Part shown: piece by piece, positions 5,555 to 57,748 of the stretch | Layout: each line of letters begins with the position of its first letter | Numbering within the stretch: the first letter of the stretch is position 1 | Assembly: GCA_016875635.1 (NCBI GenBank) | Contig: VGPD01000002.1 | Coordinates: 13,090 to 77,089, forward strand | Origin: Chloroflexota bacterium | Lineage (GTDB): Bacteria; Chloroflexota; Dehalococcoidia; UBA2979 | Length of the DNA: 64,000 nt | Direction: 5' to 3' | Notes under the pieces: generated by a model | Told to the model about the DNA's origin: nothing | The model's database searches: none | The model's input: the letters and a program-made list of their open reading frames with translations, nothing else | Program-made: the position numbers and the translations under genes

Positions 5555-5746
5555 ATGGACGTGTCCAACAGCACCGACGTGTTTCTGCGAGCGATGGTCT
5601 CGCAGGCACCGGTCTACATCGTGGCGATCGACGGCGAGGGGCGCTTCGTCAGGCTCGAAGGCGATCTGGTGCGAAGGATGGGGATCGACCCGGAGCGAGC
5701 GATCGGGGCATCGGCGTTCGATTACCTGCAGGTGTGCCGGTCCTAG
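5555..5746 (+). CDS. short PAS-like fragment ORF (possible remnant)
   Basis: MDVSNSTDVFLRAMVSQAPVYIVAIDGEGRFVRLEGDLVRRMGIDPERAIGASAFDYL looks like the N-terminal half of a PAS fold. Too short for a full domain, and it overlaps the 3' end of the SARP gene. Confidence 0.25.
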   Translation: MDVSNSTDVFLRAMVSQAPVYIVAIDGEGRFVRLEGDLVRRMGIDPERAIGASAFDYLQVCRS

Positions 5747-6942
5747 ACCGCTGTGAGCGCCTCCATGAGTGCCCGCTCGACCACGGCGGAAGGCTGCGCC
5801 CCCACCTCGCTCCTCAGGATGCGGCGGTAGTCCTCGTACTGCCGGCGTGCGTCCGTTCGCCGTCCCAGGTGGCCGTAATAGGTGATCAGCGCGACCTGGA
5901 ACTGCTCCTGGAGCGGGTCAGATTGCAACGCGCGTTCGCAGCATTCCACGCTCTGCTCGATGGCGCCGCGCACGGCGAAGGAGACGGCTGCCCGCGCGAG
6001 CAGGTCGTGGTAGAGCCGGCGCAGCCGGCGGTGGTGCGCGGTGGCCCACGCGCCGAAATCCTCTCCGGCGGCGAAGTCACCGCGGTACAGCGCGAGTGCG
6101 TCCTCGATGGCGGACGGAGATCCGACGCCGTCGCCGGCGCGAAGCGCAGCATGCGCACGGGTTTCGAAATCCACCGCGTCAATACGCAGCGTGGGAGTTT
6201 CATCGAGCACGTACATGGTGCCCTGACGCCGCAGCGGGACGTCCGGGCCGGCCGAGTTGAGCAGTTGCCGCAGGCCGTGGAGGAGTACGCGGAGCCGGGG
6301 GCCTGAGAGATCGATCGACTCGTCCGGCCAGAGATCCTCCGCGATCCAGTCGCGTTGCGCGCCGCCCGGACCGGCGATCGCGAGGTAGGCGAGCAATTCA
6401 AGCACCCGCCGCCGTGGTGGCATCGGCAGCGGGACGCCACCGGCGAGGAGTGCCACCGGGCCGAGCAGGCGGATGTCCAGGGTGGCGTTGGCCGGGGCGG
6501 TTGCTCCGCGGACGTGGATCGTGACGAGCGCGACCTCGCCTCCGGCCTCGCGGGACGGGGCGGCGATGACCGAGCCGCTGATCGGGATGCGACGGCCGTC
6601 GCGTGTCTGCCATTCGGCCCACGGGAGCGGCACAGGTTCATGTCGCACCAGCGCGTCGTAGACCGGACAGTCGACGGTCTGGCAGAGGCACTGCCCGTCG
6701 GGCAGGCCCGCGCCCATCAGTTCGTCGCAGGCGCGCCCCAGAATCTGGTCTTCCGGGATGCCCATGAGGTTCCGTGCGGCCTCGTTGGCGGCCAGGACGC
6801 GCTGCCCGGCGCCCACCACAAACGCGGCGTCCGCCGTGAGGTTCACCAGGTCGCTCAGCCTCATGGGAGTCCCATTCAAGGCAATCTGCTGTAACTGGGA
6901 TGTAACTCCCGACTCAGGGTGACCGGAAGTGACCAACGTCAC
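5743..6942 (-). CDS. SARP-family transcriptional regulator with N-terminal Cys-rich PAS-like sensor domain (PAS + OmpR-type wHTH + BTAD)
   Basis: LLGPVALLAGGVPLPMPPRRRVLELLAYLAIAGPGGAQRDWIAEDLWPDE is a SARP winged-helix. ALALYRGDFAAG...PLQEQFQVALITYYGHLGRRTDARRQYEDYRRILRSEVGAQPS is a BTAD. The N-terminal region has C-x13-C-x-C-x4-C. The track start is GTG at 6942; an ATG at 6864 is the alternative. Confidence 0.75.
   Translation of the reverse strand: MTLVTSGHPESGVTSQLQQIALNGTPMRLSDLVNLTADAAFVVGAGQRVLAANEAARNLMGIPEDQILGRACDELMGAGLPDGQCLCQTVDCPVYDALVRHEPVPLPWAEWQTRDGRRIPISGSVIAAPSREAGGEVALVTIHVRGATAPANATLDIRLLGPVALLAGGVPLPMPPRRRVLELLAYLAIAGPGGAQRDWIAEDLWPDESIDLSGPRLRVLLHGLRQLLNSAGPDVPLRRQGTMYVLDETPTLRIDAVDFETRAHAALRAGDGVGSPSAIEDALALYRGDFAAGEDFGAWATAHHRRLRRLYHDLLARAAVSFAVRGAIEQSVECCERALQSDPLQEQFQVALITYYGHLGRRTDARRQYEDYRRILRSEVGAQPSAVVERALMEALTAV
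6890..6907 (+). promoter_or_regulatory. tandem heptamer direct repeat TGTAACT-GGGA-TGTAACT (SARP-box-like, 11-bp periodicity)
   Basis: Read directly. It lies in the extreme 5' region or leader of the SARP gene, on the opposite strand. Confidence 0.4.
6929..6942. promoter_or_regulatory. 14-bp palindrome GTGACCAACGTCAC (candidate operator) at the SARP gene start
   Basis: Perfect inverted repeat GTGAC/GTCAC with a 4-bp spacer. A third GTGAC copy sits 7 bp upstream. Confidence 0.3.
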
Positions 6943-7062: not shown

Positions 7063-7146
7063 CGCAAGGGGGAGAATCCACGCAGATCGCGCATGCGGTC
7101 ACAAGCGCAAAGCGTACCGGTGTGGACGGAATCTGGAGCACGCCCG

Positions 7147-10100
7147 ATGAATGACCAGGCTCGGCTGCCTCGACGGTCGTTTCTGAAGCGCGCGGCGGCG
7201 ATCGGCGCTGGGGTCGCCCTTGCGGACGCACTGGCGTTCGAGCCGTGGCATCTGGAGGCGAGCGATCCGGTCACGGTGACGGAGCCGCTGAAGATCTACC
7301 CGGACCGGAAGTGGGAGAGCGTCTACCGCGACCTCTGGAAGCCCGACAGTTCGTACGTCTTCACCTGCGCCCCGAATGACACGCACGACTGTCTCCTGAG
7401 CGCCCAGGTGAAGAACGGCGTGGTCGTGCGCATTGCCCCGACCTACGGGTACGGGAAGGCGAAGGACCGGAACGGCAACGGCGCCTCCCACCGGTGGGAT
7501 CCGCGCGCCTGCCAGAAGGGCCTCGCGCTGGCGCGGAAGTTCTACGGCGACCGGCGGGTGAAGGGGCCGATGATCCGCAAGGGCTTCAAGGAGTGGGCGG
7601 ACGCGGGCTTCCCGCGCGAGGCCGACACTGGCAAACCGAAGATGGACACCTCGAAGCGCGGCGAGGACTCGTGGCTCAAGTTGCCCTGGGATGAGGCGTA
7701 CGCGTACGCGGCGAAGGCCTACCAGAACATCGCCACCACGTACTCAGGCGACAAGGGGGCACAGTTCCTGCAGAAGCAGGGCTACGACCCCGACATGATC
7801 AGCGCGATGTCCGGCGCCGGGACGCGCGCCCTGAAGATCCGCGGCGGCATGCCGTTGCTGGGGATCGGGCGCATCTTCGGCTTCTACCGCCACGCGAATA
7901 CGCTGGCGCTGCTGGACGACAGCATCCGGAAGGTGGGCAAGGACGCGGCGCTGGGCGCACGCGGGTGGGACAACTACTCGTGGCACACCGACCTGCCGCC
8001 GGGCCACCCGATGGTCACCGGCCACCAGACATTCGAGTTCGACCTGTTCGCGCCGGAGTATGCCGACCTGGTGGTCATGTTCGGCATGAACTGGATCTCG
8101 ACGAAGATGCCGGACGGGCACTGGTTGGCCGAGGCCCGGATGAAGGGCACGCGCCTGATCACGGTGACCACGGACTACCAGTCCACCTCCAACCGGGCGG
8201 ACGAGGTCATCATGATCCGCCCCGGCACGGACGCGGCGCTCGCGCTCTCCTGCTCCCAGTACATCATCGCGAACCGGTTGTACGACGAGGCTGCGGTCAA
8301 GCGGACGACGGACCTGCCGTTGCTGATCCGCATGGACACGAAGAAGTTGCTCTCCGCGTCGGACCTGGTGTCCGGGTATCAAGCGGCGACACTCACGAAC
8401 TACGTGACGATGCTGCCGACTGGCCAGTCGATGCCGACGCCGACGCAGCAAGCGACGATGTACCTGACGCCCGAGCAGCGCGCAGAGTGGGGTGACTTCG
8501 TCGTCTGGGACGCCCGCACCAGCCGTGCCGTGCCTGTGACACGCGACCAGGTGGGCGACAAGTTCACGACCGACCCGGCGCTTGAGGGCGAATTCGAGGT
8601 GACGCTGGCCAACGGCCAGAAGGTCAAGGCACGCACCGTCTTCTCACTGGTCAGGCAGTACCTGGACGACAACTTCACGCCGGCCGTGGCCTCCGAGGTC
8701 ACCTGGGCGCCGCAGGCCGCGATCGAGGGGCTGGCGAAGCAGATTGCGAAGGCGAAGCAGAAGACCCTGCTGCCGCACGGGATGGGGCCCAACCACTTCT
8801 TCAACGCCCACCTGAAGGACCGCGCGATCTTCCTGCTCGCGGCATTGACCGACAACATCGGCCACATCGGTGGAAATGTCGGTTCGTACGCAGGGAACTA
8901 CCGCGGCTCGGTGTTCAACGGGATCCCCCAGTTCATCCAGGAGAACCCGTTCGATCTGGAGCTCGACCCCACGAAGCCGGCCCGGCAGAAGGGCTACTAC
9001 AAGAGCGAGTCCGCCCACTACTACAACTACGGCGACCGACCACTGCGGGTCGGGAACAAGAACTTCACGGGCAAGTCGCACATGCCGTCGCCCACGAAGT
9101 TGATCCACGTCGGCAACTCCAACTCGCTGCTGGGGAACGCGAAGTGGCACCACGATGTCGTCCACAACACGCTGCCGAGGATCGAAGCGATCTTCGTGAA
9201 CGAGTGGTGGTGGACGGCCTCCTGTGAGTACGCGGACATCGTGTTCGGGGTGGACTCGTGGGCGGAGCACAAGTTCGTGGACGCGTCCGCGTCCTGCACC
9301 AACCCGTTCCTGCACATCTACCCGCGCTCGCCCCTGAAGCGGATCTTCGACACGCGCTCCGACTACGAGGTGCTGGCGGGGGTAGGGAAGGCGCTGGGCG
9401 CGCTCACCAATGACCAGCGCTTTGTGGACGCGTGGAAGTTCATCCACGAAGGGAAGTCGGAGGTCTACCTCCAGCGCATCTTCAACGCCTCCACGACCGC
9501 CCGCGGCTACGACGTCCTCGACCTGGAGGCGAAGGCCCAGCAGGGGATCCCGGCGCTGATGAATTTCCGCACCTACCCCCGTCAGGGTGGCTGGGAACAG
9601 CGGAACGAGAGCAAGCCGCAATACACGAAGACGGGCCGGCTGGAGTTTTACCGGGACGAGGCGGAATTCATCGAGCACGGGGAGAACCTGCCGGTGTTCC
9701 GCGAGCCGATCGACTCCACGTTCCACGAACCGAACGTGATCCACGGGAAGCCACACCCGATGCTCGCGCCGAGCGGGCCGGAGGTGTACGGGCTGAAAGT
9801 GGACGACCTCTCCGCGGAGGCGCGCCAGGTGCGCAACGTGGTGAAGTCGTGGTCGGAGTTGAAGGTCACGAAGCACCCGCTGACCAACAAGGATCCGAAC
9901 TTCAAGTTCATCTTCATCACGCCGAAGTACCGACACGGCGCGCACACGACGCCGGTCGACCTCGACTGGATCTCGATGCTGTTCGGCCCGTACGGGGACA
10001 TCCGGCGGCAGGACAAGCGCGCCCCGTGGGTGGGTGAGGGGTACATCGAGATCCACCCGAAGGACGCGAAGGCATTCGGCATCGAGGACGGTGACTACGT

Positions 10101-10620
10101 CTGGTTCGACGCCGACCCGGAGGACCGCCCGTACCGCGGGTGGAAAAAGGACGACCCGTACTACAAGGTGGCCCGCGGCATGGCACGGGCCCGGTACCAG
10201 GCCTCGTTGCAGCCCGGCGTCACGCGCATGTGGTTCCACATGTACGTCGCGACGAAGGGCTCGGTGAAGGGGCAGGCGACACGTCCCGACGGGCTGGCGA
10301 AGAGCCCCGAGACGAACTACCAGGCGATGTTCCGCTCCGGCAGCCACCAGAGCGGTACGCGCGCCTGGCTCGGGCCCACGCTGCAAACCGAGACCATGGC
10401 CCGCAAGCCGTACTTCGGGCAGTTGATGGGGAAGGGGTTCGAGGGGGACGTCCACTCGGTGGTCGGTGCTCCCAAGGAGTCCTTCATCAAGATCGAGCGT
10501 GCCGAAGAGGGCGCGGTGGGCGGCAAGGGCCTGTGGCTCCCCGCGAAGGAAGGACTGCGTCCGACCTACGAGTCCGACGCGATGAAGAAGTACCTGAGCG
10601 GCGCGTTCTTCAGCGCGTAG
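7147..10620 (+). CDS. Tat-exported molybdopterin oxidoreductase alpha subunit, NarG-like (type II DMSO reductase family; NxrA/pNarG-like), unknown substrate
   Basis: Twin-arginine motif [14 protein letters not shown]. The N-terminus aligns residue by residue with E. coli NarG FS0 (NarG THGVNCTGSCSWKIYVKNG versus here [19 protein letters not shown]), then RAC.KG and PMIRKG as in NarG. Start is preferred at ATG 7147 (GGAG 8 nt upstream) rather than the track start 7093. 1157 aa. Confidence 0.85.
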
Positions 10621-10659: not shown

Positions 10660-11790
10660 ATGCCTGACGTCTTCAACTGGCAGCTCGACCGTCCGATGAA
10701 GTACCAGTACGAGGAGGCGCGACCCCAGAAGCAGATCGCGTGGATCTTCGACACGAACAAGTGCATCGCGTGCCAGACCTGCACCATTGCGTGCAAATCC
10801 ACCTGGACCTCCGGCAGCGGCCAGGAGTACATGCTCTGGAACAACGTGGAGACGAAGCCGTTTGGCTTCTTCCCCACAGGCTGGGACGTGAAGCTCCTGG
10901 AGATCATGGGCCCGGACGCCTGGAAGGACGGGAAGTTCGCCGGCCAGACCGTCTTCGAGTCCGCGCCAGCCGCGGAGCGGGTGAAGGGCCACCTGTTCGA
11001 CGCCGACCACTGGTCCCACCCGAACCTGGGTGAGGACGAGCCGGCAGGCGAGGCGGCACGCGGGACACACATCGACAAGCTGCCGCACGACATGTGGTTC
11101 TCCTACCTCGCGCGGATCTGCAACCACTGCACCTATCCCGCCTGTCTTGCGGCCTGTCCGCGGCAGGCGATCTACAAGCGGCCGGAGGACGGCATCGTCC
11201 TCGTCGACCAGGAGCGCTGTCGCGGCTATCAGGAGTGCGCGAGCGCCTGCCCGTACAAGAAGACGATGTACAACGAGGACACGCGGGTCACGGAGAAGTG
11301 CATCGCCTGCTACCCGAAGATCGAGCAGGGGCTGCAGCCGCAGTGCGTCACCTCCTGTATCGGGAGGATCCGCCTCGCGGGTTTCATCAGCCCTCCGGGC
11401 AAGATCGACCCGAAGAACCCGATCGACTATCTGGTGAAGGTGAAGAAGGTCGCGCTGCCGCTGTACCCGCAGTCCGGCACCGAGCCGAACGTCTACTACA
11501 TCCCGCCGGTCCACTCGAAGCGCGAGTACCTCCGCCAGATGTTCGGCCCGGGCGTGGATGTCGCCGTCGACACCTACCTGAAGACCAAGGAAGACCCGCA
11601 GATGCTGGGCCTGTTCATGCTCTTCGGGTCGACCGAACGGATCATCCGGCAGTTCGAAGTGAAGGGCAGCATGGCGATCGGATACGACGAGACGGGGAAG
11701 GAGCTGGTGAGCGTCCCCGTCACGGAACCCAGCGTGGTGCGTGAATACTTCGACCGGGTGAACCAGACGTACGTCCACAACATCACCTAG
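10660..11790 (+). CDS. iron-sulfur beta subunit, NarH/NxrB/EbdB-like (four Cys clusters)
   Basis: QIAWIFDTNKCIACQTCTIACK, CNHCTYPACLAACP, CRGYQECASACP and CIACYPK...CVTSCIGRIR. 376 aa, shorter than NarH. Confidence 0.85.
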   Translation: MPDVFNWQLDRPMKYQYEEARPQKQIAWIFDTNKCIACQTCTIACKSTWTSGSGQEYMLWNNVETKPFGFFPTGWDVKLLEIMGPDAWKDGKFAGQTVFESAPAAERVKGHLFDADHWSHPNLGEDEPAGEAARGTHIDKLPHDMWFSYLARICNHCTYPACLAACPRQAIYKRPEDGIVLVDQERCRGYQECASACPYKKTMYNEDTRVTEKCIACYPKIEQGLQPQCVTSCIGRIRLAGFISPPGKIDPKNPIDYLVKVKKVALPLYPQSGTEPNVYYIPPVHSKREYLRQMFGPGVDVAVDTYLKTKEDPQMLGLFMLFGSTERIIRQFEVKGSMAIGYDETGKELVSVPVTEPSVVREYFDRVNQTYVHNIT

Positions 11791-11834: not shown

Positions 11835-12779
11835 ATGGCAACAGATTCAGATGGGCCGGCTGGCACGCAGCAGAGTGAGACAACGGCAGAGGTCGGCCGG
11901 CGACAGTTCCTCAAGCGCGCCGGCGCCGCGGCCGCTGCGGGGACAGTCGGCGCCGGCGTCATCGGCTATGCGGCGACGAACAAGCGAGGCGCGGCGAAGT
12001 CCCTCGTCTGCGGCTACCGCGCTGGCGACCTGCCGGTTGTTGATCCGGCAAGCGCGGTCTGGACGCGGCGGTCCGCGTTCAAAGTGACCATGCTGGTCCA
12101 GAACATCGCGACGCCGCATGCTCCGGCGCTGGTCGTGCCGACCCTGAAAGTGCGGGCGCTTCACAACGGCACGCAGATCGCCTTTCACCTCGAGTGGGCG
12201 GACAACTCGAAAGACGAATTGAGCGGCCTCGCACGGTTCAACGACGCGGTCGCAGTGCAACTGGCGGCAGATTTCGCGAAGGAGGCGGCGACCGGGGTGA
12301 CCATGGGGGCGGTGGACAACCCCGTGCATATCCTGCAGTGGAAGGCCTCCTGGCAGTCGGACCTGGACAGCGGTCAGAAAACCTCGAAGGACATCTGGCC
12401 GAACATCTACAACGACGTGCGTCCGGAGCAACTGATGCCGGTCGACCAGGCGAAGAGCTGGTACCCCGGCTGGGCGGTCGGAAACCCGCTCTCACAGCGG
12501 GACAAGAAGTCTCCGGTGGAAGAGATGGTCGCCGTCGGGTTTGGGACGCTCACGACACACAAAGAGCAGGAGGCTGTGGGGAAGGGCATCCACGATCGCA
12601 ACCGCTGGCGCGTCGTGATCGCAATGCCGATGAAGGGGAACGGCGCCAACAAGGCGCAGGTGACGCCTGGGCAGACCCGCCAGATCGCCTTCGCCGTCTG
12701 GGACGGCGGTGAGGATCAACGCGGCTCTCGCAAGCAGTACGCCCTCTGGGTGCCGATGGAAGTGGAGGCCGTCGCATGA
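11835..12779 (+). CDS. putative heme-b gamma subunit (EbdC/DdhC/NxrC-like, EB_dh family) with its own Tat signal
   Basis: RRQFLKRAGAAAAAGTVGAGVIGYAA twin-arginine signal. Its size and position after the beta gene match gamma subunits of type II enzymes. No CxxCH motif. Confidence 0.5.
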   Translation: MATDSDGPAGTQQSETTAEVGRRQFLKRAGAAAAAGTVGAGVIGYAATNKRGAAKSLVCGYRAGDLPVVDPASAVWTRRSAFKVTMLVQNIATPHAPALVVPTLKVRALHNGTQIAFHLEWADNSKDELSGLARFNDAVAVQLAADFAKEAATGVTMGAVDNPVHILQWKASWQSDLDSGQKTSKDIWPNIYNDVRPEQLMPVDQAKSWYPGWAVGNPLSQRDKKSPVEEMVAVGFGTLTTHKEQEAVGKGIHDRNRWRVVIAMPMKGNGANKAQVTPGQTRQIAFAVWDGGEDQRGSRKQYALWVPMEVEAVA

Positions 12780-13552
12780 CCACCGCAACGCAGTCGCTTC
12801 CCCTGCAGGCCGCCATCTTCCGCTCTGCGCTGTACGAGACGCTCGCGCTCAGTTTCGCCTACCCCACACCTCATCTCGGTGAGCGGCTCGAAGACGCCAT
12901 CGCCGACCTGCTTGAATTGCCTGAGGTCGCCGAGGCTGGTTACGCCGACGACCTGATGCGCATGCGCGACGCGTTGGCCGCGTCTTCGACGGACGTGCTC
13001 GCCATGGAGCACAACCATCTGTTCGAGCATTCGACGTTCTGTTCACCGTATGAGACCGAGTACGAGCCGGACCCGTTCGCGAAGGCGCGCCAGCTGGCGG
13101 ACATCGCCGGCTTCTACACCGCCTTCGGGATGTCCGTGTCCACGATGCGGCCCACGTTGCAGGACTTCCTTGGCACGGAGCTCGAGTTCATGTCGTTCCT
13201 GGCGCGGAAAGAGGCGTACGCCGCGGCGCGCAATTGGAGGCATCGCCGGCAGGTGACGGTGGACGCCGAACGTGCGTTCCTGCACGACCACCTCGGGCGG
13301 TGGGAGAAGGCGGTCTGCAAGGACGTCACGGACCACACGGCGATGGAAGCCGGCATGAACAGCGCGGCCCCGTTCTTTGGCGCCGTCGCCTCGCTGTGCG
13401 TCCGGTTCGTGGAGGACGAGCTCCGCCGCTTTGGCACGAAGCCGCTGCGTCTCACTCAGCGGATGGTCGGCAACGAAGAACCTGTCGCCTGTCCGTTCGC
13501 GAGCGCCGCCGCCGAGGACGAGCTCGAACCGCTTGACCCGGTCGAGGATTAG
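12776..13552 (+). CDS. TorD/NarJ-family redox-enzyme maturation chaperone (delta subunit)
   Basis: ATGA overlap with the gamma gene. Acidic all-alpha protein with EHNHLFE, GFYTAFG and FLARKEAY motifs typical of NarJ/TorD/EbdD-like chaperones. Confidence 0.65.
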   Translation: MTTATQSLPLQAAIFRSALYETLALSFAYPTPHLGERLEDAIADLLELPEVAEAGYADDLMRMRDALAASSTDVLAMEHNHLFEHSTFCSPYETEYEPDPFAKARQLADIAGFYTAFGMSVSTMRPTLQDFLGTELEFMSFLARKEAYAAARNWRHRRQVTVDAERAFLHDHLGRWEKAVCKDVTDHTAMEAGMNSAAPFFGAVASLCVRFVEDELRRFGTKPLRLTQRMVGNEEPVACPFASAAAEDELEPLDPVED

Positions 13553-13569: not shown

Positions 13570-14211
13570 GTGATGGTCACCGTGCAACGTACGGCCGGCC
13601 CGGCCGCCGCTCCTTCGACCACGCAGAGTGATGCGGAGTGGCTGACGGGTGTCTATGCGCGCTCTGCACAACGGCATGAACGCCTCTGTCCTCGGCAGGT
13701 CCTCGGTGTGCGCATGGGACTCGCGGCCGCGGAGGCGCTCGGCGTCGATCCGCGTGCGTCCGGGAAGGCACTCTACATCTTCGCAGAGACGGACGGCTGT
13801 TTCGCGGACGGTGTGGAGGCGGCCACCGGCTGTTCCATGGGGCACCGGAACATGCGACTGATGGACTACGGCCGAGTCGCGATCGTCGCGGTGCACATCG
13901 AGTCGGGTGCCGCGGTCCGCATATCCCCTGCGCCTGGCGTGCGTGAGGCTGCGTCGGCGTACGCGCCGGACGAGTCTCGGCGGTACTACCAGCAGCTGGA
14001 GGGTTACCAGGCGATGCCGGATGCGGATCTCCTCCGCATCCGCCCGGTGAGCCTGCGCGTCGACCTCGCCGCGTTGCTCGGTCGGAAGGGCTTGCGGGTC
14101 GACTGCGACCGCTGCGGGGAGGAGGTCCTCAATGGCCGCCAGCACCTCGAATCTGGCCGCCCGGTCTGCCAGGGATGCACAGGCGGGGCGTTCTACTCCG
14201 CGATGAGCTGA
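13570..14211 (+). CDS. FmdE-family protein with C-terminal zinc ribbon
   Basis: QVLGVRMGLAAAEALG...ETDGCFADGVEAATGCSMGHRNMRLMDYGRVAIVAV matches the FmdE domain. A C-terminal CDRCGEEV...CQGC is present. A GAGGAGG RBS precedes the gene. Confidence 0.6.
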   Translation: MMVTVQRTAGPAAAPSTTQSDAEWLTGVYARSAQRHERLCPRQVLGVRMGLAAAEALGVDPRASGKALYIFAETDGCFADGVEAATGCSMGHRNMRLMDYGRVAIVAVHIESGAAVRISPAPGVREAASAYAPDESRRYYQQLEGYQAMPDADLLRIRPVSLRVDLAALLGRKGLRVDCDRCGEEVLNGRQHLESGRPVCQGCTGGAFYSAMS

Positions 14212-28092: not shown

Positions 28093-29698
28093 GCGAGACG
28101 CCGTTGTAGAGCATTTCAGGGTCGCCCTCGAAGACGTCGCTCCGGAGGTCGGCGACCACGACGATGGGTCGATCCGAGACGATGACGACGCTCCCCACCC
28201 AGTTGTCCGGCAATGAGCGCTCGTCCCGCGGATGGAACGTGCGTGAACCCTCCACCGGGACGGAGGTGTCCGGGAACAGCCCGCGGGGGAACTGCTTCGA
28301 GTAGTAGACGATGTAGGCGTAGGTCGTGGAACCGTCGAACGAGGCGACCCGGAACGATGAGTTCCAGCCGCTGCGCCCCCCGAACGGGCCGTAGTTCTTG
28401 TTGATCACCGGCAGGACCACCTGGCGCGACGACTCCGATGGGGTGAAGCCCCGGTAGTCGGAGAGCGAACCAGTCGACGAGAGACGCTGGACGATGACGG
28501 TGATCGGCTCGACCGACTGGATGCGGACGCTCCCCGTGAACGACGAGGGCAGCGCGCGGTCCGCCGGGAGACATCCGAGGGTCGTGGGCTGCGACTGGTC
28601 GCAGGTCATCGAGCCGAAGACGGTCACCTTGCTTTCGATGGAGATCTGCGCGCCGCTGCCATCTCGCCCCTCAAAGCGGAGGGTGACCTCGTTCGGTGCG
28701 CCGGGCGTGGCACTGAACATGCGGAATCGAGTCGTGTACGAGGCACCGGCCTCGGACGTCGCCCGGTCGACCATCGGCAGGAGCACCACGCGGCTTGCCT
28801 CGTCGGAGGACAGTGCGCGGTACGTCGATAGACCGGCACGGACGCGGTCGCGCGTGTCCACCGCGACCGAGAGCTGCTGGATGCCGGCCGCCACGCCGCC
28901 CGAGGCCGGCTGCGTGCGGACGATGGCGGCCCCATCGAACCCGAACGGCGCGGCCATCGATGTCTCGTCGCGCAGCATCGAGGCTCGCGGCGCGAGGTAT
29001 TCGCCGCCGCTGGGACAGTTGCTGGTGGAGCTCGTGGGGTCGGTCGCGGCGGGAGAGAGGCTGCCGACGGCGTAGTACATGATCTGGACGCAGGCCGGAG
29101 TGTCCTTGCTCGTGTTCTCGATCGAAATGCGCGAGACCAGCGAGGCGGTGTTCGTGACCCAGGGCAGGTAGTGGCGGTCCGCGCCGGAGCCGAGGCGCAG
29201 CGAGTCACCGCCCAGTTGCAGCGTGCCGTCCGGCCGGATCAGGTCGCGCGCCAGCATCGCGACGAACGGTTGATCGCCGACCAGGTAGCCGGAACCGCGG
29301 TACCCCCTGGGGAGGGCGTCGAGGGTCTGCTGGAAGAAGGAGCGGCCAGAGCCGGGGGAGATGGCGTCGCAGACGCCGGCCTTCGGACAGCCATCCTTCG
29401 CGGCCTGCGTCCCGTTCGGCTGATAGAAGGTGAGGTCGAGCGTGACCGGCTGCGTGCCGACGTTCTGGACGCGTAGCCAGGAGTTCTCCTCGGCCAGTCG
29501 CGCCTGCTGTGCGACACCCCGGTCCGGTGCGAGGGCGGCGACCGCGAGGGCGGCGACCAGCACCAGCGCAGTGGCGGCACGTCGGACGGTTATCGGGCGC
29601 AAGGGGCGAAGCAGCACGCGCGTCAGCCCTCGGCGCAGCAGCACCGGCACAGTGGCTTGCCTTCCCTCCCCCGCCGAAGATCGATGATAACCGTGCAT
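28085..29698 (-). CDS. secreted/membrane-anchored protein with 3-4 internal repeats of a ~130-aa beta-rich module, unknown function
   Basis: N-terminal hydrophobic anchor (AATALVLVAALAVAALAP). Recurring motif blocks LRVQNVGTQPVTLDLTFYQPNG, SRISIENTSKDTPACVQIMYY, VRIQSVEPITVIVQRL and SVVIVSDRPIVVVADLRS. Confidence 0.45.
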   Translation of the reverse strand: MHGYHRSSAGEGRQATVPVLLRRGLTRVLLRPLRPITVRRAATALVLVAALAVAALAPDRGVAQQARLAEENSWLRVQNVGTQPVTLDLTFYQPNGTQAAKDGCPKAGVCDAISPGSGRSFFQQTLDALPRGYRGSGYLVGDQPFVAMLARDLIRPDGTLQLGGDSLRLGSGADRHYLPWVTNTASLVSRISIENTSKDTPACVQIMYYAVGSLSPAATDPTSSTSNCPSGGEYLAPRASMLRDETSMAAPFGFDGAAIVRTQPASGGVAAGIQQLSVAVDTRDRVRAGLSTYRALSSDEASRVVLLPMVDRATSEAGASYTTRFRMFSATPGAPNEVTLRFEGRDGSGAQISIESKVTVFGSMTCDQSQPTTLGCLPADRALPSSFTGSVRIQSVEPITVIVQRLSSTGSLSDYRGFTPSESSRQVVLPVINKNYGPFGGRSGWNSSFRVASFDGSTTYAYIVYYSKQFPRGLFPDTSVPVEGSRTFHPRDERSLPDNWVGSVVIVSDRPIVVVADLRSDVFEGDPEMLYNGVSLD

Positions 29699-29820
29699 CC
29701 GGATTCGCGGCGACGTGGGCGGCGCTCTCCCGCAACCCCGGAGTCGCTCCTCGCGCTTGCGGGGAGGGCGGTGCTACCCTCGCCCTCCGGGCCAGCCGAG
29801 GTCGCCTCGCCGCCTGTCCT

Positions 29821-29897
29821 CGGGGTGTAGCTCAGCTTGGCAGAGCGCTTCGTTCGGGACGAAGAGGTCCCCGGTTCAAATCCGGGCACCCCGACCA
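29821..29897 (+). tRNA. tRNA-Pro (anticodon CGG)
   Basis: Cloverleaf folded by hand: acceptor CGGGGTG/CACCCCG, D-arm GCTC..GAGC, anticodon stem CTTCG/CGAAG with loop TTCGGGA, T-arm CCCGG-TTCAAAT-CCGGG, discriminator A, CCA. Confidence 0.85.
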
Positions 29898-29958
29898 TCA
29901 CTTCCCGCCTCCTGTCGATCCGAATCCAGTAGCCCCCGCCTCGGGGTACCATGCCCGT

Positions 29959-31176
29959 ATGCCTGACGCTCTGCGGCCCCGCATTCTCATTACCCGCTCC
30001 GATGATTCCGAGGAGCGCTGGGAGAACTACGCCGACCGCGTCCGAGCCGCCGGAGGCGAGCCGATCCCCTTCGATGTCGCGCTCTATCAGCGTGGCGACG
30101 TGTCCCCTGCCCACGACGGGCTCGTCCTGACGGGTGGCGCCGATGTCGACCCCGCGCGGTACGGGGAGCCGCCCCACGAGCGGCTGGGCGACCTCGTTCC
30201 CGCCCGCGACGAGGCCGAGTTCACGCTCGTACGGGCGGCGCTCGCGGATGGGCGTCCGCTGCTGGCGATCTGCCGCGGGATGCAGGTGATGAATGTCGCC
30301 TCGGGTGGCTCCCTCCACCAGCACCTCGATGAACGAGAGCCGCACCGGAGCCGCCGCGGGGCTGACGGCGTGACCATCGATTCCGGCTGGCATGGCGTCG
30401 AGGTGGTCGGCGGCACGCTGCTGTCACGCGTCACGAAGGCGGCTCACCTGCGCGTGAACTCGCGCCACCATCAGGCGGTGACGCGTGCGCGCCTCGCGCC
30501 GGGCCTCGTCGCCTCCGGTATGACCTCGGAAGGTGGCTTCGAGGTGGTGGAGGCGATCGAGGCGCCACATCATCCGTTTGCGCTGGGCGTGCAGTGGCAC
30601 CCGGAGCGCTCGGATATGGCGGCGACCCCGGCGCTGCGCGCCGGCTCAGGGGCGCTGTTCGAGTCGTTTCTGAACGCCTGTGCCGCAGGCCGCGCGACGC
30701 CCGAGTCCCCGTTTCTCTACTTCGGCTATGGGTCGAGCATGGACGCTGACCGGATGCGTCAGACGGCGCCGCACGCGCGCCTCATCGGTCCCGCCCGGCT
30801 CGCTGACCACGCCCTCGCGTTCTCGATCGAGTCGAAGAACACCTGGCACGGCGGGGTGGCGGACATCTTGCCCTCGCCCGGGGACGAGGTCTGGGGCGCC
30901 CTGTGGGTGCTGTCCCCGGAGGAGTCGCAGGCGCTCGACGAGCACGAGGGGGTGTTCCGAGAGCCCTCCGCCTACCGCCGGGTGACGGTGGAGGTGACGA
31001 CGCCTGCCGGCGACCATGTGCGCTGTCGCTCGTACCAGGTCGTCGCACCGGATCCCCGGACGCCGCTCCCCTCGAAAGCGTTTAAGGAGACGTTGCTCCG
31101 GGGGGCGCGGACGGTAGGCCTTCCTGCCGCCTATGTCGCCCGTCTGGCGGCGCTCCCGGACAACGGGCGGGCGTAA
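29959..31176 (+). CDS. fusion of class-I glutamine amidotransferase-like gamma-glutamyl hydrolase (PuuD/peptidase C26) and gamma-glutamyl cyclotransferase (GGCT/AIG2-like) domains
   Basis: N-terminal LAICRGMQVMNVASGGSL...VNSRHHQAV...GVQWHPE. C-terminal FLYFGYGSSMDADRM...GALWVLSPEESQALDEHEG...YRRVTVEV. The track ORF start (29509) runs through the tRNA and was trimmed to ATG 29959. Confidence 0.6.
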   Translation: MPDALRPRILITRSDDSEERWENYADRVRAAGGEPIPFDVALYQRGDVSPAHDGLVLTGGADVDPARYGEPPHERLGDLVPARDEAEFTLVRAALADGRPLLAICRGMQVMNVASGGSLHQHLDEREPHRSRRGADGVTIDSGWHGVEVVGGTLLSRVTKAAHLRVNSRHHQAVTRARLAPGLVASGMTSEGGFEVVEAIEAPHHPFALGVQWHPERSDMAATPALRAGSGALFESFLNACAAGRATPESPFLYFGYGSSMDADRMRQTAPHARLIGPARLADHALAFSIESKNTWHGGVADILPSPGDEVWGALWVLSPEESQALDEHEGVFREPSAYRRVTVEVTTPAGDHVRCRSYQVVAPDPRTPLPSKAFKETLLRGARTVGLPAAYVARLAALPDNGRA

Positions 31177-53154: not shown

Positions 53155-53985
53155 CTAATCGATCAGTTGGTCTCGCGTTACTTCGACCTCATCGAGAAAT
53201 GCGCGGACGGTCGTGTTCCACTCCGCCGGGCGCTCGAAATAGGTCGAGTGGCCGGCATCGCGCAGGAGGTGGAAGCGAGAGCCGGGGGTCAGGTCGTGCG
53301 AGATCCGGATCAGGTCCGGAGGCATGACGCGGTCGTGTTCGCCGACGATCCAGAGGATCGGCAGGCCGCTCTCGACGAGCCTCGACGCCGTCGAGCCGCG
53401 GTAGTTCACCATCCGCCCGGTGGGGGCGAGGAAGTCGCGCTCGCGCTTCGGGTTGAGCGCTCGGACGCGGGCGTACAGGTACGCCATCGCCGGGTCTTCC
53501 TGCGCGAATCCGTCCTTCAGCGCGCGGCGCAGCAGCGAACCGGCCAGCGTCCCGTCCGCCTCCAACTCCACCTTTCGCGCTCGGTAGCGGTCGTCCACGC
53601 ACCCGGCGTTCGTGCCGGAGAAGACCAGCGAGGCGAACCGTCCCGGCTCGCGCGAGAGCAGTCCGAAGGCGCTGCGCCCGCCCATCGAGTGCGCCACGAA
53701 GTGGACGCGCTCGACGGCCAGGTGTTCCAGCAGCGCACGGATGTCCGGGCCGAACGCCACCCGCCCGGGGCCTTCATCGATGTCTGGCGAGCGGCCGAAG
53801 GCGCGGTGGTCGAAGGTGATGACGGGGTAGACCTCGGCGAGGGCGGGCACCTGTTGCCACCAGGACATCGCGTTTCCGCCAGCACCGTGCGCGAGCAGCA
53901 CGGGCGTGCGCGAGGTCTCGGACGGCTTCGGGCCGTGCGTCTCGTAGTACAGGCGGAAGCCGTCAGCGAGGTCGAGGTGCGGCAC
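53155..53985 (-). CDS. alpha/beta hydrolase (enol-lactonase-like)
   Basis: VLLAHGAGGN and HSMGG nucleophile elbow. 276 aa. Confidence 0.6.
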   Translation of the reverse strand: MPHLDLADGFRLYYETHGPKPSETSRTPVLLAHGAGGNAMSWWQQVPALAEVYPVITFDHRAFGRSPDIDEGPGRVAFGPDIRALLEHLAVERVHFVAHSMGGRSAFGLLSREPGRFASLVFSGTNAGCVDDRYRARKVELEADGTLAGSLLRRALKDGFAQEDPAMAYLYARVRALNPKRERDFLAPTGRMVNYRGSTASRLVESGLPILWIVGEHDRVMPPDLIRISHDLTPGSRFHLLRDAGHSTYFERPAEWNTTVRAFLDEVEVTRDQLID

Positions 53986-54475
53986 GTTCGACCATCCCTC
54001 CGTCCCACGGCTCCCCCGTGGCGTTGCTGATCGCGCTCAACATGTCCTCGACGTCGCCCCGGAGTTTCTCATCCGGGTCGAGGGCCAGCGCGCGCAGGAA
54101 GAGCGTCTTCGCCGCGGCGTAGTGTCGCGCTGCGTCGCCGTCGACCGGCTGATGCGCCCGCTTCGGCCGTCGCAGCTCCTCCGCGACGAACTCGGTACAC
54201 CACCCGGCTGAGTAGAGGACGTACGGGTCTGCCGGGGAGGCTTCGACGGCACGTCCGAGGACAGCGAGCCCGTCCGCGAACCGTCGCCTCCGCGTGACCA
54301 GTGTCTGCCCGAGGTAGGAGAGCGCCTCGCCGAACTCCGGCCACCGCGCCACCACGGCCTGTGCCACTTCGAGCGCCGCATCGATCTCTCCCGCCGCATG
54401 CAGGTCCATCGCCGCACGGAACGCGGCGCGGGCCTCGGGCGGGAAGTCAGGAGGGACATCGCGCGGCTCGGGCAT
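53963..54475 (-). CDS. TPR-like repeat protein
   Basis: Helical repeats. The ORF-track 5' part was trimmed because it runs antisense through the tRNA-Arg gene. Start at ATG (MPEPRD). Confidence 0.35.
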   Translation of the reverse strand: MPEPRDVPPDFPPEARAAFRAAMDLHAAGEIDAALEVAQAVVARWPEFGEALSYLGQTLVTRRRRFADGLAVLGRAVEASPADPYVLYSAGWCTEFVAEELRRPKRAHQPVDGDAARHYAAAKTLFLRALALDPDEKLRGDVEDMLSAISNATGEPWDGGMVERAAPRPR

Positions 54476-54519
54476 GCCTCGATGATACGCAACGCGCGAG
54501 GCGGCTAAACTGTCAGCAT

Positions 54520-54595
54520 GCGCCGGTAGCTCAGGGGATAGAGCAATAGTCTTCGGAACTATCGGTCGGGGGTTCGAATCCCTCCCGGCGCACCA
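54520..54595 (+). tRNA. tRNA-Arg (anticodon TCG)
   Basis: Hand-folded cloverleaf: acceptor GCGCCGG/CCGGCGC, D-arm GCTC..GAGC, anticodon stem ATAGT/ACTAT with loop CTTCGGA, T-arm GGGGG-TTCGAAT-CCCTC, discriminator A, CCA. Confidence 0.75.
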
Positions 54596-54649
54596 TGCAC
54601 ACCAAGTGAGGCCACTCGTATGCTGCCCTCGTATCCGGGGAGGCTGTCG

Positions 54650-55444
54650 ATGTCTGGTTCTCGGCGCTTGGCACGTTAGCTCGTTCTCCTGACGCTCGCC
54701 GCCGCACTGGGACTGGGGCGGAGCGCCCATGCCCAGGAGCCGCCCGTCCAGACGACCCAGGTCCCGGGTTCGCTGAGCACCAGCGGGAGCTACAACGCGA
54801 AGGTCAGCACCTCAAGCTCCGGGTTCTTTGAGCGAGCAGGGACCTATTCAGCCAGTGTCTCCTTCACCGCTGCGGTCTCGGTGTCCGGCGTCAACGTCCA
54901 GGTGCCCAGCGGAAGCTACCAGGCGACCGGGCCATTCACCGCCACCGTCAGTGCACCAGGTGTCGCACCGTTCGTCGTCACCGGGACGTACAACGCCGGG
55001 GGGACCTTCGCGGCGGGGACCTTCGTGAGCTCCGGTCAGTGGACCGTGACCTCGGGGGGAGCCGCGTCCGGCTCCCACAGCGGAGGAGGCACGTACAACC
55101 TGTCCACGATGACGGTGGCCGCGAACGGGCAGTACGTCGGTGCGGCTGCTGGGCCAGCACACGGACGGGCGTGTCGCCGCTCTCACGCTCACGATGCCGG
55201 CTGGGGGCCCAGTTCGGGCGCGCTGGGCGACCTCCAGGTCGAGGCCCGACGTGTGGAGCCTGCGCGGCGCGCCGGGTTCCCACCGCCCGAGTCCTACGTG
55301 CTCGACCTCCGCTTCAGCACCCCGTCGAGTTCGTCGACGCTCTCGGGAGTTCGAGGCCGCGTGACCATCGGGCCGATGTACCCGGTGATGCGAGCCGACC
55401 AGCCCTGTCCCGATCAGCCCTACCGCGCGCTCCTCATCGTGTGA
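54650..55444 (+). pseudogene. secreted Gly/Ser/Thr-rich repeat protein with an in-frame TAG inside its signal peptide
   Basis: GGGGAGG RBS, then ATG MSGSRRLAR-TAG-LVLLTLAAALGLGRSAHA/QEPP..., followed by GSY.A.V..G(T)Y repeats. Possible additional frame problems near 55150. Confidence 0.35.
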
Positions 55445-55945
55445 GACGCGGTTGGCAGCTAGGTCGCGCGAATCGAGCCGGCGGTCGATGGTGCCTACGC
55501 GCTCCCGCTCTCGCGGGGTTCGTATCTGATGGCGCTGCTGTCGCCACCGGTGTCGCGTTTGCCGTGGGCCCCACGCGGGCGTTCGATGTGCAGTCATCGG
55601 TGTGGACAGTGTTGGACGTCGCTTTCGACAGCGGGATTCGATAACGAACGTGGTGCGGTGAGATCCCCAGGAGATTCAGCCGGGGACAGCGGACATAACG
55701 ATCATATGTTCTGGCAATAGCCCCGGGGGTATTGCGCTGGCGGTCGTAAGGCGGCACGATCTCACCATTGTTTGAGGCAGACGCCAAAACTCGCGGCGCA
55801 TGGGCGTCCCGAGTACGGGGGAACCAACTACTGGGGCGTAACGGTCGGAGCCGGTGAATCCGGGGACGACAGTGCGGGACCTCCACCCGTAGCCCGTCAG
55901 CTCACCTCGTCGGCGTAAGGAGGAACCCCGGAGAGGGTTCCGCCG

Positions 55946-57748
55946 TTGATTAATTTTCCTGCTTTGGGTGTGCCATTGCGTGCCCGGGGCGATCAGCCTG
56001 CCACCACCACGCCGCCCTTGGGTCCCAGTTCGCCGACATGGTGGCGGGTGAGCGACGCGATCCCGTTCATCCTGTCGGTGGCGTTGGCCTCTTCGGTATT
56101 CTGGGCGCCCTGGACGCAAACGACCGCGGCGATCCTCGCGATCTCCCTCACCGTGTTCTTCATCTACTGGGTAATCCGTTCGTACTCGGTGGGCATCGCG
56201 GTGTGGGTTGGCCTGCGGCGCATCCGGGAGTGGACCGCCACGGACTGGCACGGCAAGTACGAGGCGTGGTCGCGCTCACACGCGGACGCGCCGGCATGGG
56301 ACTGGCCGCGCCATCTCGTCATCGTGCCCAACTACAAGGAGCACGAGGAAGGGCTGGCGCGCACGCTTCGGTCACTGGCGACCCAGGCGAACGCGCGGCA
56401 GGTCGTCGTTGTCCTTGCCATGGAGGCGCGCGAGGCAGAGGCGGCAGGCAAGTCAGAGCGGCTCATCGCCCAGTTCCAGGGCGCGTTCGCCGGTATTTAC
56501 GCGACCTTCCACCCGGCCGGGCTCCCCGGCGAGCTCGCCGGCAAGGGCTCCAACGAGGCGTGGGCCGCCCGTGAGATGTACACGCGTCTCATTGAGCGCG
56601 ACGGTGACGACCTCGGTCGGTACACGGTCACATCGTGCGACGCGGACGCTGTCTTCCATCCCCGGCACTTTGTGGCCCTCAACTACCGGTTTCTCGCGGC
56701 GGCGGATCGCTACCGGACGTTCTGGCAGCCGACCATCTTCAACTCGAACAACATCTGGGACATCCCCTCGCCGTTGCGGATCCCGGACGGGCTCTCTGGC
56801 ATCAACCGCACCGCGAACCTGGTGCTCCCATTCGCCGTGAAGTTCCCGACCTCGTGCTACTCTCTCTCGTGGTCGATGCTGCATGAGATCGACTACTGGG
56901 ATGAAGAAGTCATCCCCGAGGACTGGCACGTCTACCTGAAAGCGTGCTTCACCCTGGGTGACCGTGTGGGTGTCGACCCGATCTTTATCCCGCTGGGCAA
57001 CGACTGCGTTCTGGCGCCGGGCGGGACGTGGGCCACGCTGAAAGCGCACTACGAGCAGTCGAAGCGTCACGCCTGGGGCGCCAGTGACATCACCTACGCG
57101 TGGAACGCGACCTTCCGTCGCGGGCCGCTGTCAGTGGGCAGGCGATTGATCCTTGCCCTGGCCCTGACGAAGACGCACGTCTTCTGGGTAGCGCAGTGGT
57201 ACATCGTCACGCTGGGTATCCTTGTCCCGGCCAAGATGTCGGGCACCTTCGGTGCATCGATGCCGCTCTGGTGGACGCACAAGGCGTTCAACATCCCGGG
57301 CCCCGGCTGGCACCCCGAGAACGTGGCGCATGTCGACAGGTGGCTCGCATTCGACAAGTCAGGCGTTGTCGAGCCGAGCATGTGGCTGAACTTCAACGGG
57401 CTGCTGATCGCCGTCTGCCTGCTGCCGCTGATCGCACTGATCGTCTTCGAAACCCGGACCCGTCCCGCGCGGCCGGACTGGGTGACGGGATGGGGTCTGT
57501 TACGACAGTACGTGATGTGGCCGGCGATGGGCGTGATCACGTTCTTCTGGGCGAGCATGCCCGCTCTGCACGCCCAGTGGCGTCTCGCTGCCGGGAAAGG
57601 CCTCGTCTACAAGGTGGCCGAGAAAGGTACCCGCCAGATGGCGGCTGCCGCGGAGGCAGCGCATCACGCGGCGACCGCATCGCATGACAACGCGCTCGCC
57701 CGACATCTTGAACCCGTCGAGGCACTGGTGGTGGAGGCTCGCCCATGA
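55946..57748 (+). CDS. membrane-integrated family-2 glycosyltransferase (processive synthase-like)
   Basis: VIVPNYKEHEE, DAD, and Q-x2-RW-like AHYEQSKRHAWG. Multiple TM helices on both sides of the catalytic domain. Confidence 0.65.
   Translation: MINFPALGVPLRARGDQPATTTPPLGPSSPTWWRVSDAIPFILSVALASSVFWAPWTQTTAAILAISLTVFFIYWVIRSYSVGIAVWVGLRRIREWTATDWHGKYEAWSRSHADAPAWDWPRHLVIVPNYKEHEEGLARTLRSLATQANARQVVVVLAMEAREAEAAGKSERLIAQFQGAFAGIYATFHPAGLPGELAGKGSNEAWAAREMYTRLIERDGDDLGRYTVTSCDADAVFHPRHFVALNYRFLAAADRYRTFWQPTIFNSNNIWDIPSPLRIPDGLSGINRTANLVLPFAVKFPTSCYSLSWSMLHEIDYWDEEVIPEDWHVYLKACFTLGDRVGVDPIFIPLGNDCVLAPGGTWATLKAHYEQSKRHAWGASDITYAWNATFRRGPLSVGRRLILALALTKTHVFWVAQWYIVTLGILVPAKMSGTFGASMPLWWTHKAFNIPGPGWHPENVAHVDRWLAFDKSGVVEPSMWLNFNGLLIAVCLLPLIALIVFETRTRPARPDWVTGWGLLRQYVMWPAMGVITFFWASMPALHAQWRLAAGKGLVYKVAEKGTRQMAAAAEAAHHAATASHDNALARHLEPVEALVVEARP

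Follow-up and report, generated by a model that had tools for sequence, protein, structure and literature searches.

A nitrite oxidoreductase-like operon in a Chloroflexota contig

The 64,000-nucleotide stretch of contig VGPD01000002.1 that we analysed (the window) carries a set of genes whose order, nxrA-B-C-D, is conserved among related loci (Table 1). The best solved relative of the alpha subunit was Kuenenia NXR-A (7B04), matched over its full length with 40% identity and an E-value of 7e-273; when the whole protein was compared with the PDB by phmmer, the bit scores were 911 for 7B04_B, 171 for PcrA, 139 for EbdA and 111 for NarG. Pfam searches identified domains PF00384 and PF01568, and an AF2 model (pTM 0.84) matched 7B04 with Foldseek TM-scores of 0.88/0.91, the query-normalised scores for PcrA, EbdA and NarG being 0.62 or lower. 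AF2 models no cofactors; the fold of the subunit is confirmed. The protein scored under every curated NCBIfam cutoff, including those of the NarG equivalog TIGR01580 (130.8 bits vs. a cutoff of 1084) and of TIGR03479 (DMSO_red_II_alp, for Ebd/Ser/Ddh/Pcr-type enzymes; 301 bits vs. 984.75); it belongs to a group related to TIGR03479 and is not a member of that curated subfamily.

Table 1. Genes and sites of the nxr-like locus, with positions in the window.
Feature	Position	Strand	Description
PAS + BTAD transcriptional regulator, divergent	5743..6942	-	Pfam PF08448 + PF03704
nxrA-like gene	7147..10620	+	1157-aa protein, predicted catalytic Mo-bisMGD alpha subunit
Twin-arginine signal peptide of alpha subunit	7147..7236	+	Read directly from the sequence
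FS0 motif, C74-A-P-N77-D78-T-H80-D-C82	7366..7392	+	Three of the four predicted [4Fe-4S] ligands (Cys, Asp, Cys) and putative substrate-facing Asn77; homologous to KsNXR-A C67, N70, D71, C75
Cys122, predicted fourth FS0 ligand	7510..7512	+	In DPRAC-QKG, 39 residues past Cys82; aligns with KsNXR-A C115 and the Cys of NarG 'EPRGC'
Asp282 (Y-x4-D), predicted molybdenum ligand	7990..7992	+	Aligns with KsNXR-A Asp275 and the Asp of the NarG 'YDWYCDLPP' loop
nxrB-like gene	10660..11790	+	376-aa Fe-S subunit; 7B04_A, E 2.4e-113; Pfam Fer4_11
nxrC-like gene	11835..12779	+	Haem b subunit of 314 aa, EB_dh fold, with a separate RR signal; Pfam PF09459; 7B04_C, E 5e-21; EbdC, E 5.6e-17
nxrD-like gene	12776..13552	+	TorD/NarJ-family maturation chaperone; Pfam PF02613 Nitrate_red_del; TIGR03482
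FmdE-like gene	13570..14211	+	C-terminal CxxC...CxxC; Pfam PF02663

We prefer the start of the nxrA-like gene given in Table 1 to an upstream ATG at 7093, since it yields the 1157-residue length of the nearest homologs and has a GGAG 8 nt upstream. A minus-strand ORF (7099-7491) covering the motif site was rejected as spurious, having failed the codon-position GC filter in this DNA of 68% GC. Within the signal peptide R9, R10 and F12 are nearly invariant in homologs, some of which carry the Pfam TAT signal PF10518, and a hydrophobic stretch follows; this twin-arginine signal predicts an extracytoplasmic active site. The product is predicted to be the alpha subunit of a periplasmic (TAT-exported) nitrite/nitrate oxidoreductase of the type II DMSO-reductase family.

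The NxrB-like subunit has its complete set of 15 cluster cysteines in four groups, FS1-FS4 (35/38/41/45, 154/157/162/166, 187/193/197 and 214/217/229/233). On the NarH cysteine pattern we assign a [3Fe-4S] cluster to one of these groups and [4Fe-4S] clusters to the other three; FS0 alone has a ligand other than Cys. In the NxrC-like subunit Met157 and Lys300 are the predicted haem ligands, the segments 'VTMGA' and 'SRKQY' being aligned with the Met/Lys ligand positions, and a hydropathy scan that peaked in the signal region only revealed no C-terminal membrane helix.

An nxrD-like gene follows nxrC in 63 of 80 related loci. A homolog of the FmdE-like gene adjoins the operon in 14 of the same number, mostly in Chloroflexota genomes, and this linkage suggests that it may be an accessory gene of the operon as found in Chloroflexota. 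The divergent PAS-BTAD gene is a candidate regulator of the operon; it has counterparts at the same position in locus L001 (86% identity) and in seven other Chloroflexota loci. Neither the window nor the DNA adjoining the operon of the 76%-identical locus L016 contained oxidase, cytochrome c or carbon-fixation genes. An exact-sequence look-up of the alpha subunit gave no match. As an Rfam scan gave no rRNA, taxonomy rests on protein similarity.

An aspartate at the second ligand position of FS0

A preliminary description of this DNA, made from its letters and a list of open reading frames, had drawn attention to an FS0 motif at 7366-7512 in which, on a by-eye alignment, Cys replaced His50 of NarG and Asp replaced Cys54. 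Both end coordinates are exact, spanning the codons from C74 to C122 (C74 TGC, 7366-7368; D78 GAC, 7378-7380; C82 TGT, 7390-7392; C122 TGC, 7510-7512), and the NarG motif that it quoted has the same letters in the protein of E. coli K-12 (NC_000913.3), which reads S-T-H50-G-V-N-C54-T-G-S-C58-SWKIYVKNG...EPRG-C-PRG. The corresponding context in our translation is SSYVFT-C74...C82-LLSAQVKNG...DPRA-C122-QKG, so that the fourth ligand, said to lie in RAC where NarG has RGC, is C122 of DPRAC opposite the Cys of EPRGC. Profile and multiple alignments by HMMER and MAFFT agreed on both replacements: without a gap in the motif, C74 fell on NarG His50 and D78 on NarG Cys54, while the two remaining Cys ligands of NarG were matched by C82 and C122.

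Residues 48-158 alone, searched against the PDB with phmmer, matched the motif to 'ccspndthac' of Kuenenia NXR-A (E-value 1.5e-32) and, ungapped, to 'thgvnctgsc' of NarG (4e-6), while the whole protein aligned it with 'hlvnctgac' of PcrA. A search for 50%-identity representatives gave best 150 matches that were mostly short or partial, with about 20 usable near-full-length representatives; a MAFFT L-INS-i alignment of NarG and 14 diverse cluster representatives returned identical ligand columns, with D78 of our protein in the second. We also rebuilt the KsNXR-A sequence from the phmmer alignment, which recovered the C67/D71/C75/C115 numbering and mapped these residues one-to-one onto C74/D78/C82/C122. 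The column of Asp282 was invariant in all 16 sequences of the MAFFT alignment and in a 53-sequence alignment; that of Asn77, aligned with Ks N70, was likewise invariant. We assign Asp282 its putative role because the aligned KsNXR-A D275 ligates molybdenum (PMC8387239).

Conservation of the motif and previous reports

Judged by these sequence comparisons, the motif match is far beyond chance. The 53-sequence alignment (60-92% identity) had invariant columns at C74, P76, N77, D78, T79, H80, C82 and C122. The FS0 Asp motif occurred in 119 of the 120 nearest homologs. Of the species-representative loci, 75 could be read, covering more than 15 phyla; 73 of these had the motif pattern, all with the identical x39 spacing to the fourth Cys. 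More distant groups have Cys4 or His/Cys3 at FS0 instead. The 3Cys/1Asp motif is thus a family-wide trait of periplasmic NXR of the Nitrospira/anammox type. A few all-Cys variants nevertheless occur inside the family (P0044, P0132, P0237, L075 and L076); because of these, Asp78 is not strictly needed for a working enzyme. Wherever it is replaced in relatives the substitute is Cys, the canonical ligand, and the swap happened several times.

The preliminary description linked this variant to Nitrospira and Kuenenia periplasmic NxrA, correctly so. In the 3.0 Å crystal structure of the Kuenenia enzyme (7B04; Chicano et al. 2021, PMC8387239) the FS0 ligands of NXR-A are C67, D71, C75 and C115, N70 is at the substrate position, D275 is on molybdenum, and M155 and K305 are on haem b. 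According to the text of Chicano et al. (PMC8387239) the aspartate had been noted previously, the credit going to Luecker et al. (2010, PNAS) for Nitrospira; papers on the Nitrospina genome, Nitrotoga and Red Sea Nitrospina contained no statement on an FS0 Asp. The 3Cys/1Asp motif was therefore already known from the 2010 observation and the 2021 crystal structure, and the gene described here is an ordinary new member of its family.

Clade placement and comparison with known systems

The same description had placed the enzyme in or near that clade, and the 911-bit match to 7B04, an identity of ~60% to Nitrospiraceae/Nitrospirota proteins and a neighbour-joining tree bear this out. In the tree the alpha subunit falls inside the Asp-type clade, in a Chloroflexota-specific subclade next to one of Actinomycetota (Gaiellales/Thermoleophilia); its closest locus is that of a Dehalococcoidia MAG (91%), and the full-length protein is 40-62% identical to bona fide NXRs.

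With Kuenenia stuttgartiensis NXR-A (Kustd1700) our protein shares Cys-x3-Asp-x3-Cys-x39-Cys with its PNDTH core, a TAT signal, and the Asn and Asp assigned to the substrate and to molybdenum, and the likeness extends to subunits B and C, down to the Met/Lys pair of haem b. The differences are the low identity, Ala rather than Asp at position 81, a Chloroflexota host rather than an anammox planctomycete, and the absence from the 64 kb window of the NXR-T tubule subunit and the large 15-gene cluster. The C-x2-N-D-T-H-x-C motif is also shared with Nitrospira/Nitrospina NxrA (Luecker et al. 2010, 2013); our protein differs in belonging to a separate Chloroflexota clade, in an operon that includes its own chaperone gene and one for an FmdE-like protein, and in its Mo-site pattern, Y-4x-D-11x-QT vs. 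the QN quoted for N. defluvii.

E. coli NarG (1Q16; FS0 ligands His50/Cys54/Cys58/Cys93, counted from Met1) has in common with our protein a homologous N-terminal domain with the cluster near the proximal pterin, the last two Cys ligands of FS0, the Asn and the Asp that ligates molybdenum, but its first ligand is His rather than Cys and its second Cys rather than Asp; it is cytoplasmic, without a TAT signal, and only ~16% identical in a structural alignment. The all-Cys relatives, both the sporadic in-group members and the nearest out-groups (P0134, P0141, P0142 and P0144, 33-36% identical to our protein), keep the C-x2-N-x-T-H-x-C frame and the fourth Cys but have Cys at the Asp78 position. 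Unrelated proteins also have Asp-ligated [4Fe-4S] clusters, for example the ferredoxin of Pyrococcus furiosus, in which one carboxylate oxygen of Asp14 stands in for a thiolate; the folds are unrelated and without homology, and the likeness is chemical only.

Alternative interpretations

The preliminary description had itself raised the concern that its by-eye alignment might be shifted, the true second ligand being a Cys. This is refuted: HMMER and MAFFT both put Asp there, the phmmer matches to NarG, PcrA and KsNXR-A were all ungapped over the motif, and C82 is the sole Cys between C74 and C122. An error of sequencing or assembly at the Asp codon, like decay of the gene into a pseudogene, is excluded by independent assemblies, in which a GAY-encoded Asp also appears, and by a frame that is intact over 1157 codons with a third-position GC of 0.92; a change from Cys to Asp would moreover take two base changes.

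It is very improbable that Asp78 is not an iron ligand and that FS0 is a [3Fe-4S] cluster or is completed by His80, Asp81 or solvent. His80 is indeed invariant and Asp81 adjoins Cys82, and the structural evidence leaves some room, given the resolution of the KsNXR structure (PMC8387239) and an AF2 model whose pLDDT was below 50 exactly at the cofactor loops of the alpha subunit (residues 76-79, 123-127 and 279-286), which makes it mute on FS0 ligation geometry. Against this, the homologous Asp71 of KsNXR-A was modelled as a ligand (PMC8387239), Asp78 is invariant, unlike position 81 (N, D, H, G, E, A or M among relatives), and replacement of Asp78 by Cys is what would be expected at a ligand position.

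Somewhat less remote, though still improbable, is an NXR-type cofactor chain that serves some other substrate, neither nitrite nor nitrate, as in EbdA, SerA, PcrA and DdhA. Family members come from more than 15 phyla and include archaea and the cultured planctomycetes Stieleria and Novipirellula, which are not known as nitrifiers, the Chloroflexota subclade has an FmdE-like gene of its own, and the scores under the curated cutoffs would also be in keeping with a different activity. On the other side, Asn77 (Ile in ethylbenzene dehydrogenase, PMC8387239) and Asp282 are invariant, the level of full-length identity to bona fide NXRs argues for the same substrate, and all characterised members of the clade interconvert nitrite and nitrate (PMC8387239, PMC10732223).

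Proposed mechanism and physiological direction

We consider it very probable, on the strength of homology, that the enzyme is a Nitrospira/Nitrospina/anammox-type periplasmic nitrite:nitrate oxidoreductase and that the motif binds its FS0 beside the molybdopterin. One FS0 iron each would be held by Cys74, Cys82 and Cys122, and the fourth by a carboxylate oxygen of Asp78; Asn77, lying between Cys74 and Asp78, would face the Mo-bound substrate, putatively nitrite or nitrate, and Asp282 would ligate the molybdenum. Electrons could then pass in either direction along Mo-bisMGD, FS0, FS1-FS4 of NxrB, the Met/Lys haem b of NxrC and an extracytoplasmic partner. The potential of a cluster is affected by Asp or His ligands, as stated by Chicano et al. 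with reference to Bak & Elliott 2014 (PMC8387239), and an oxygen ligand instead of a thiolate may here tune the potential of FS0 to the high-potential nitrite/nitrate couple. The sporadic natural Asp-to-Cys swaps would then be a ready test of this tuning. The uniformity of the Asp over more than 15 phyla, together with the repeated swaps, could guide mutagenesis relating FS0 potential to catalytic bias.

KsNXR is bidirectional in vitro (Chicano et al. 2021, PMC8387239), and the pNXR clade contains both nitrite oxidisers and reported nitrate reducers (Ca. Methanoperedens, Thermogutta), direction not being assignable from sequence (PMC10732223). For the Dehalococcoidia-like host we lean slightly toward nitrite oxidation, with the balance close to even; nitrate reduction is a serious possibility, and physiological activity on another substrate is unlikely. 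The motif flags a nitrite/nitrate oxidoreductase in a Dehalococcoidia-like genome, which is relevant to subsurface nitrogen cycling, and C-x2-N-D-T-H-x-C with a TAT signal can serve as a quick diagnostic that separates pNXR-type enzymes from NarG-type (H-x3-C) and Cys4-type ones.

We tentatively suggest, while regarding it as doubtful, that the Chloroflexota pNXR subclade may point to a hitherto unrecognised guild of nitrite oxidisers whose enzyme is extracytoplasmic. Nitrolancea has a cytoplasmic NXR, and Nitrocaldera and Nitrotheca are hot-spring organisms; the guild, if real, would be distinct from all three, with its own FmdE-like gene and PAS-BTAD regulator. The sources of the subclade are Dehalococcoidia and Anaerolineae MAGs from the deep subsurface, groundwater, lakes and reactors.

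The FS0 motif and its alignment

The product of nxrA, an NxrA-like alpha subunit encoded in a window of 67.7% GC, reads YVFT-C74-APN-D78-THD-C82-LLSAQVKNG...WDPRA-C122-QKG across its predicted FS0 [4Fe-4S] site; as the codons of C74 and C122 form the two ends of the span given in the preliminary description, that span encloses all four putative ligands exactly. A minus-strand ORF overlapping this site failed a codon-position GC filter and was taken to be spurious. Phmmer searches with the whole of NxrA, and with residues 48–158 alone, paired the motif without gaps with 'thgvnctgsc' of E. coli NarG (fragment E-value 4e-6), 'hlvnctgac' of the perchlorate reductase PcrA, and 'ccspndthac' of KsNXR-A, the nitrite oxidoreductase subunit A of Kuenenia stuttgartiensis (E-value 1.5e-32). 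In a MAFFT L-INS-i alignment that joined the query to 14 diverse cluster representatives and to NarG as encoded in E. coli NC_000913.3, column 74 held Cys or His, column 77 Asn throughout, columns 82 and 122 Cys throughout and column 282 Asp throughout, while column 78 was Asp solely in the NXR-like group and Cys in the others. A Cys-x3-Asp-x3-Cys...Cys motif had been proposed by eye, with the risk that a shifted alignment concealed a Cys at the second ligand; as both methods place the query's Asp there, a shift is ruled out and the motif confirmed.

Features of the nxr locus, the remaining window and two all-Cys relatives
Feature	Position	Strand	Remark
PAS_4 + BTAD regulator gene	5743-6942	-	divergent, upstream of nxrA
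nxrA ORF	7147-10620	+	1157-residue product, from translation
Twin-arginine signal, NxrA N-terminus		+	predicted, seen in translation
Codon of C74	7366-7368	+
Codon of D81	7387-7389		just before third ligand
Codon of C122	7510-7512	+
nxrB	10660-11790	+	7B04_A match, E-value 2.4e-113
nxrC	11835-12779	+	EB_dh haem b fold
NarJ/TorD-type chaperone gene	12776-13552	+	family match
FmdE-like gene (PF02663)	13570-14211	+	C-terminal CxxC...CxxC; directly 3' of chaperone gene
tRNA gene	29821-29894	+
Heuristic ORF	29509-31176	+	overlaps tRNA gene
tRNA gene	54520-54592	+
Heuristic ORF	53963-54730	-	overlaps tRNA gene
c-di-AMP riboswitch (ydaO/yuaA type)	55772-55927	+	55.3 bits, gathering score 38
600-residue ORF	55946-57748		weak glycosyltransferase-2 match; directly downstream of riboswitch
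All-Cys FS0 motif, L075 (Spirochaetaceae)	about 2204-2230 of L075
All-Cys FS0 motif, L076 (Myxococcota)	about 10208-10234 of L076

Identity of the enzyme

The best solved relative was KsNXR-A (PDB 7B04), matched over its full length (E-value 7e-273, 911 bits, versus 171 for PcrA, 139 for EbdA and 111 for NarG). Its FS0 ligands are C67, D71, C75 and C115, N70 occupies the substrate position and D275 is bound to molybdenum (Chicano et al. 2021, PMC8387239); the same paper states that the FS0 Asp "was noted previously", crediting Luecker et al. 2010, which is the Nitrospira-side report as cited there. The KsNXR-A sequence rebuilt from our search alignment reproduced the published numbering, and C67/N70/D71/C75/C115/D275 corresponded residue by residue to C74/N77/D78/C82/C122/D282 of the query, so that the two share Cys/Asp/Cys/Cys at the FS0 ligand positions, the substrate Asn and the Mo-site Asp. 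The assignment of this variant to Nitrospira/Kuenenia-type NxrA, and the overall interpretation, were correct, and the motif is very probably the Cys3Asp FS0 of a periplasmic (pNXR-type) nitrite:nitrate oxidoreductase.

An AlphaFold2 model built from 53 homologs (pTM 0.84) agreed in fold with 7B04 (TM 0.88/0.91, 40% identity), the next-ranked folds PcrA, EbdA and NarG reaching query-normalised TM scores of at most 0.62. The suggested structural check upheld the fold alone and said nothing of ligation geometry, as residues 76–79, 123–127 and 279–286, the cofactor loops where the ligands of FS0 and molybdenum sit, had pLDDT below 50; such apo models are weakest at the very sites in question. Residues 316–324 and 546–553 were likewise among the lowest-confidence segments and may line the cofactor pocket.

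In a neighbour-joining sketch built without named reference nitrite-oxidiser sequences, the query fell in a Chloroflexota clade beside a Gaiellales/Thermoleophilia clade, inside the Asp-type family, in line with the proposed placement in or near the Nitrospira/Kuenenia-type clade.

Distribution of the Asp motif

C-x2-N-D-T-H-x-C was present in 119 of the 120 nearest database homologs (59–95% identity), and C74, P76, N77, D78, T79, H80, C82, C122 and D282 were invariant in a 53-sequence alignment. When each GTDB species was represented by a single genome, the scan yielded 80 loci, among them bacterial (Chloroflexota, Nitrospirota, Planctomycetota, Actinomycetota, Myxococcota, Rokuibacteriota, Omnitrophota, Gallionellaceae) and archaeal (Hadarchaeota, Thermoplasmata) ones; the pattern with an x39 spacer to the fourth Cys occurred in 73, with Asp in 71 of these. 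In the alignment behind the tree, the columns could be read for 75 loci, and 73 of them showed Cys/Asp/Cys/Cys. Of the representatives of 50%-identity clusters, those of full length with at least 42% identity had the Asp, the nearest out-groups (33–36% identity) a Cys4 FS0, and the NarG-like ones a His/Cys3 FS0. The Cys3Asp FS0 is an already published, family-wide trait, and this nxrA a fresh but unremarkable addition to a known family.

That family is far wider than the recognised nitrite oxidisers. Asp-motif pNXR-like operons were also seen in the cultured planctomycetes Stieleria sedimenti and Novipirellula sp. SH528, to our knowledge not known as nitrifiers, and in archaeal MAGs of Hadarchaeota and Thermoplasmata (loci L048, L052, L057, L058, L064, L066 and others). 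Asp81 was shared with 17 of the 120 nearest homologs, 95 having Asn; of the species-representative loci, 11 from Chloroflexota and one from a Nitrospiraceae MAG (L017) showed the T-H-D-C form.

Sporadic Cys4 members (C-x2-N-C-T-H-x-C) lie inside the Asp clade: the database proteins P0044, P0132 and P0237 and the loci L075 and L076, both nested there in the tree. As Asp to Cys costs two base changes, these look like genuine, repeated ligand exchanges, and such natural Cys4 variants are a minor lead.

Operon, direction and surroundings

Downstream of nxrA lie nxrB, nxrC, the chaperone gene and the FmdE-like gene, and the A-B-C-D order was seen in most of the 80 loci. The 15 Cys of NxrB fall into four groups. 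A separate RR-type signal marks NxrC, in which Met157 and Lys300 align with the haem ligands of KsNXR-C and EbdC and which has no C-terminal membrane helix. An FmdE homolog adjoins the operon in 14 of the 80 loci, mostly in Chloroflexota genomes; its product may have an accessory role or one in maturation, and this Chloroflexota-specific gene is a second minor lead. The PAS-BTAD regulator gene adjoins the operon in 8 of the 80 loci, again mostly Chloroflexota; L001 (86% identity) and seven other Chloroflexota loci keep it in this divergent place.

By homology, FS0 would link Mo-bisMGD to the clusters of NxrB in an electron path that goes on to haem b of NxrC; its potential has been proposed to be tuned by the carboxylate ligand (Bak and Elliott 2014, as cited in PMC8387239). 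Because KsNXR works both ways in vitro (PMC8387239), the pNXR clade holds nitrite oxidisers as well as reported nitrate reducers, and published analyses find direction not assignable from sequence (PMC10732223), we commit only to the Cys3Asp FS0 of a pNXR-type oxidoreductase, with a slight lean towards nitrite oxidation.

The surroundings of nxrC, in a host that is presumably a single-membrane Chloroflexota, contain no gene for a cytochrome c, a bc complex or an oxidase, and the 64-kb window as a whole has no oxidase, cytochrome c or carbon-fixation genes; the flanks of the operon in a 76%-identical relative held no informative genes. The nearest locus, in the Dehalococcoidia MAG SURF_43, encodes an NxrA 91% identical to the query, with a neighbouring CoA-transferase (97%) and regulator (86%) also matching the window. 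Elsewhere the window is made up of housekeeping genes (ppk, gyrA, purE/K, acetyl-CoA carboxylase and the like), with a c-di-AMP riboswitch and two tRNA genes; two heuristic ORFs overlap the latter, so their boundaries are probably wrong.
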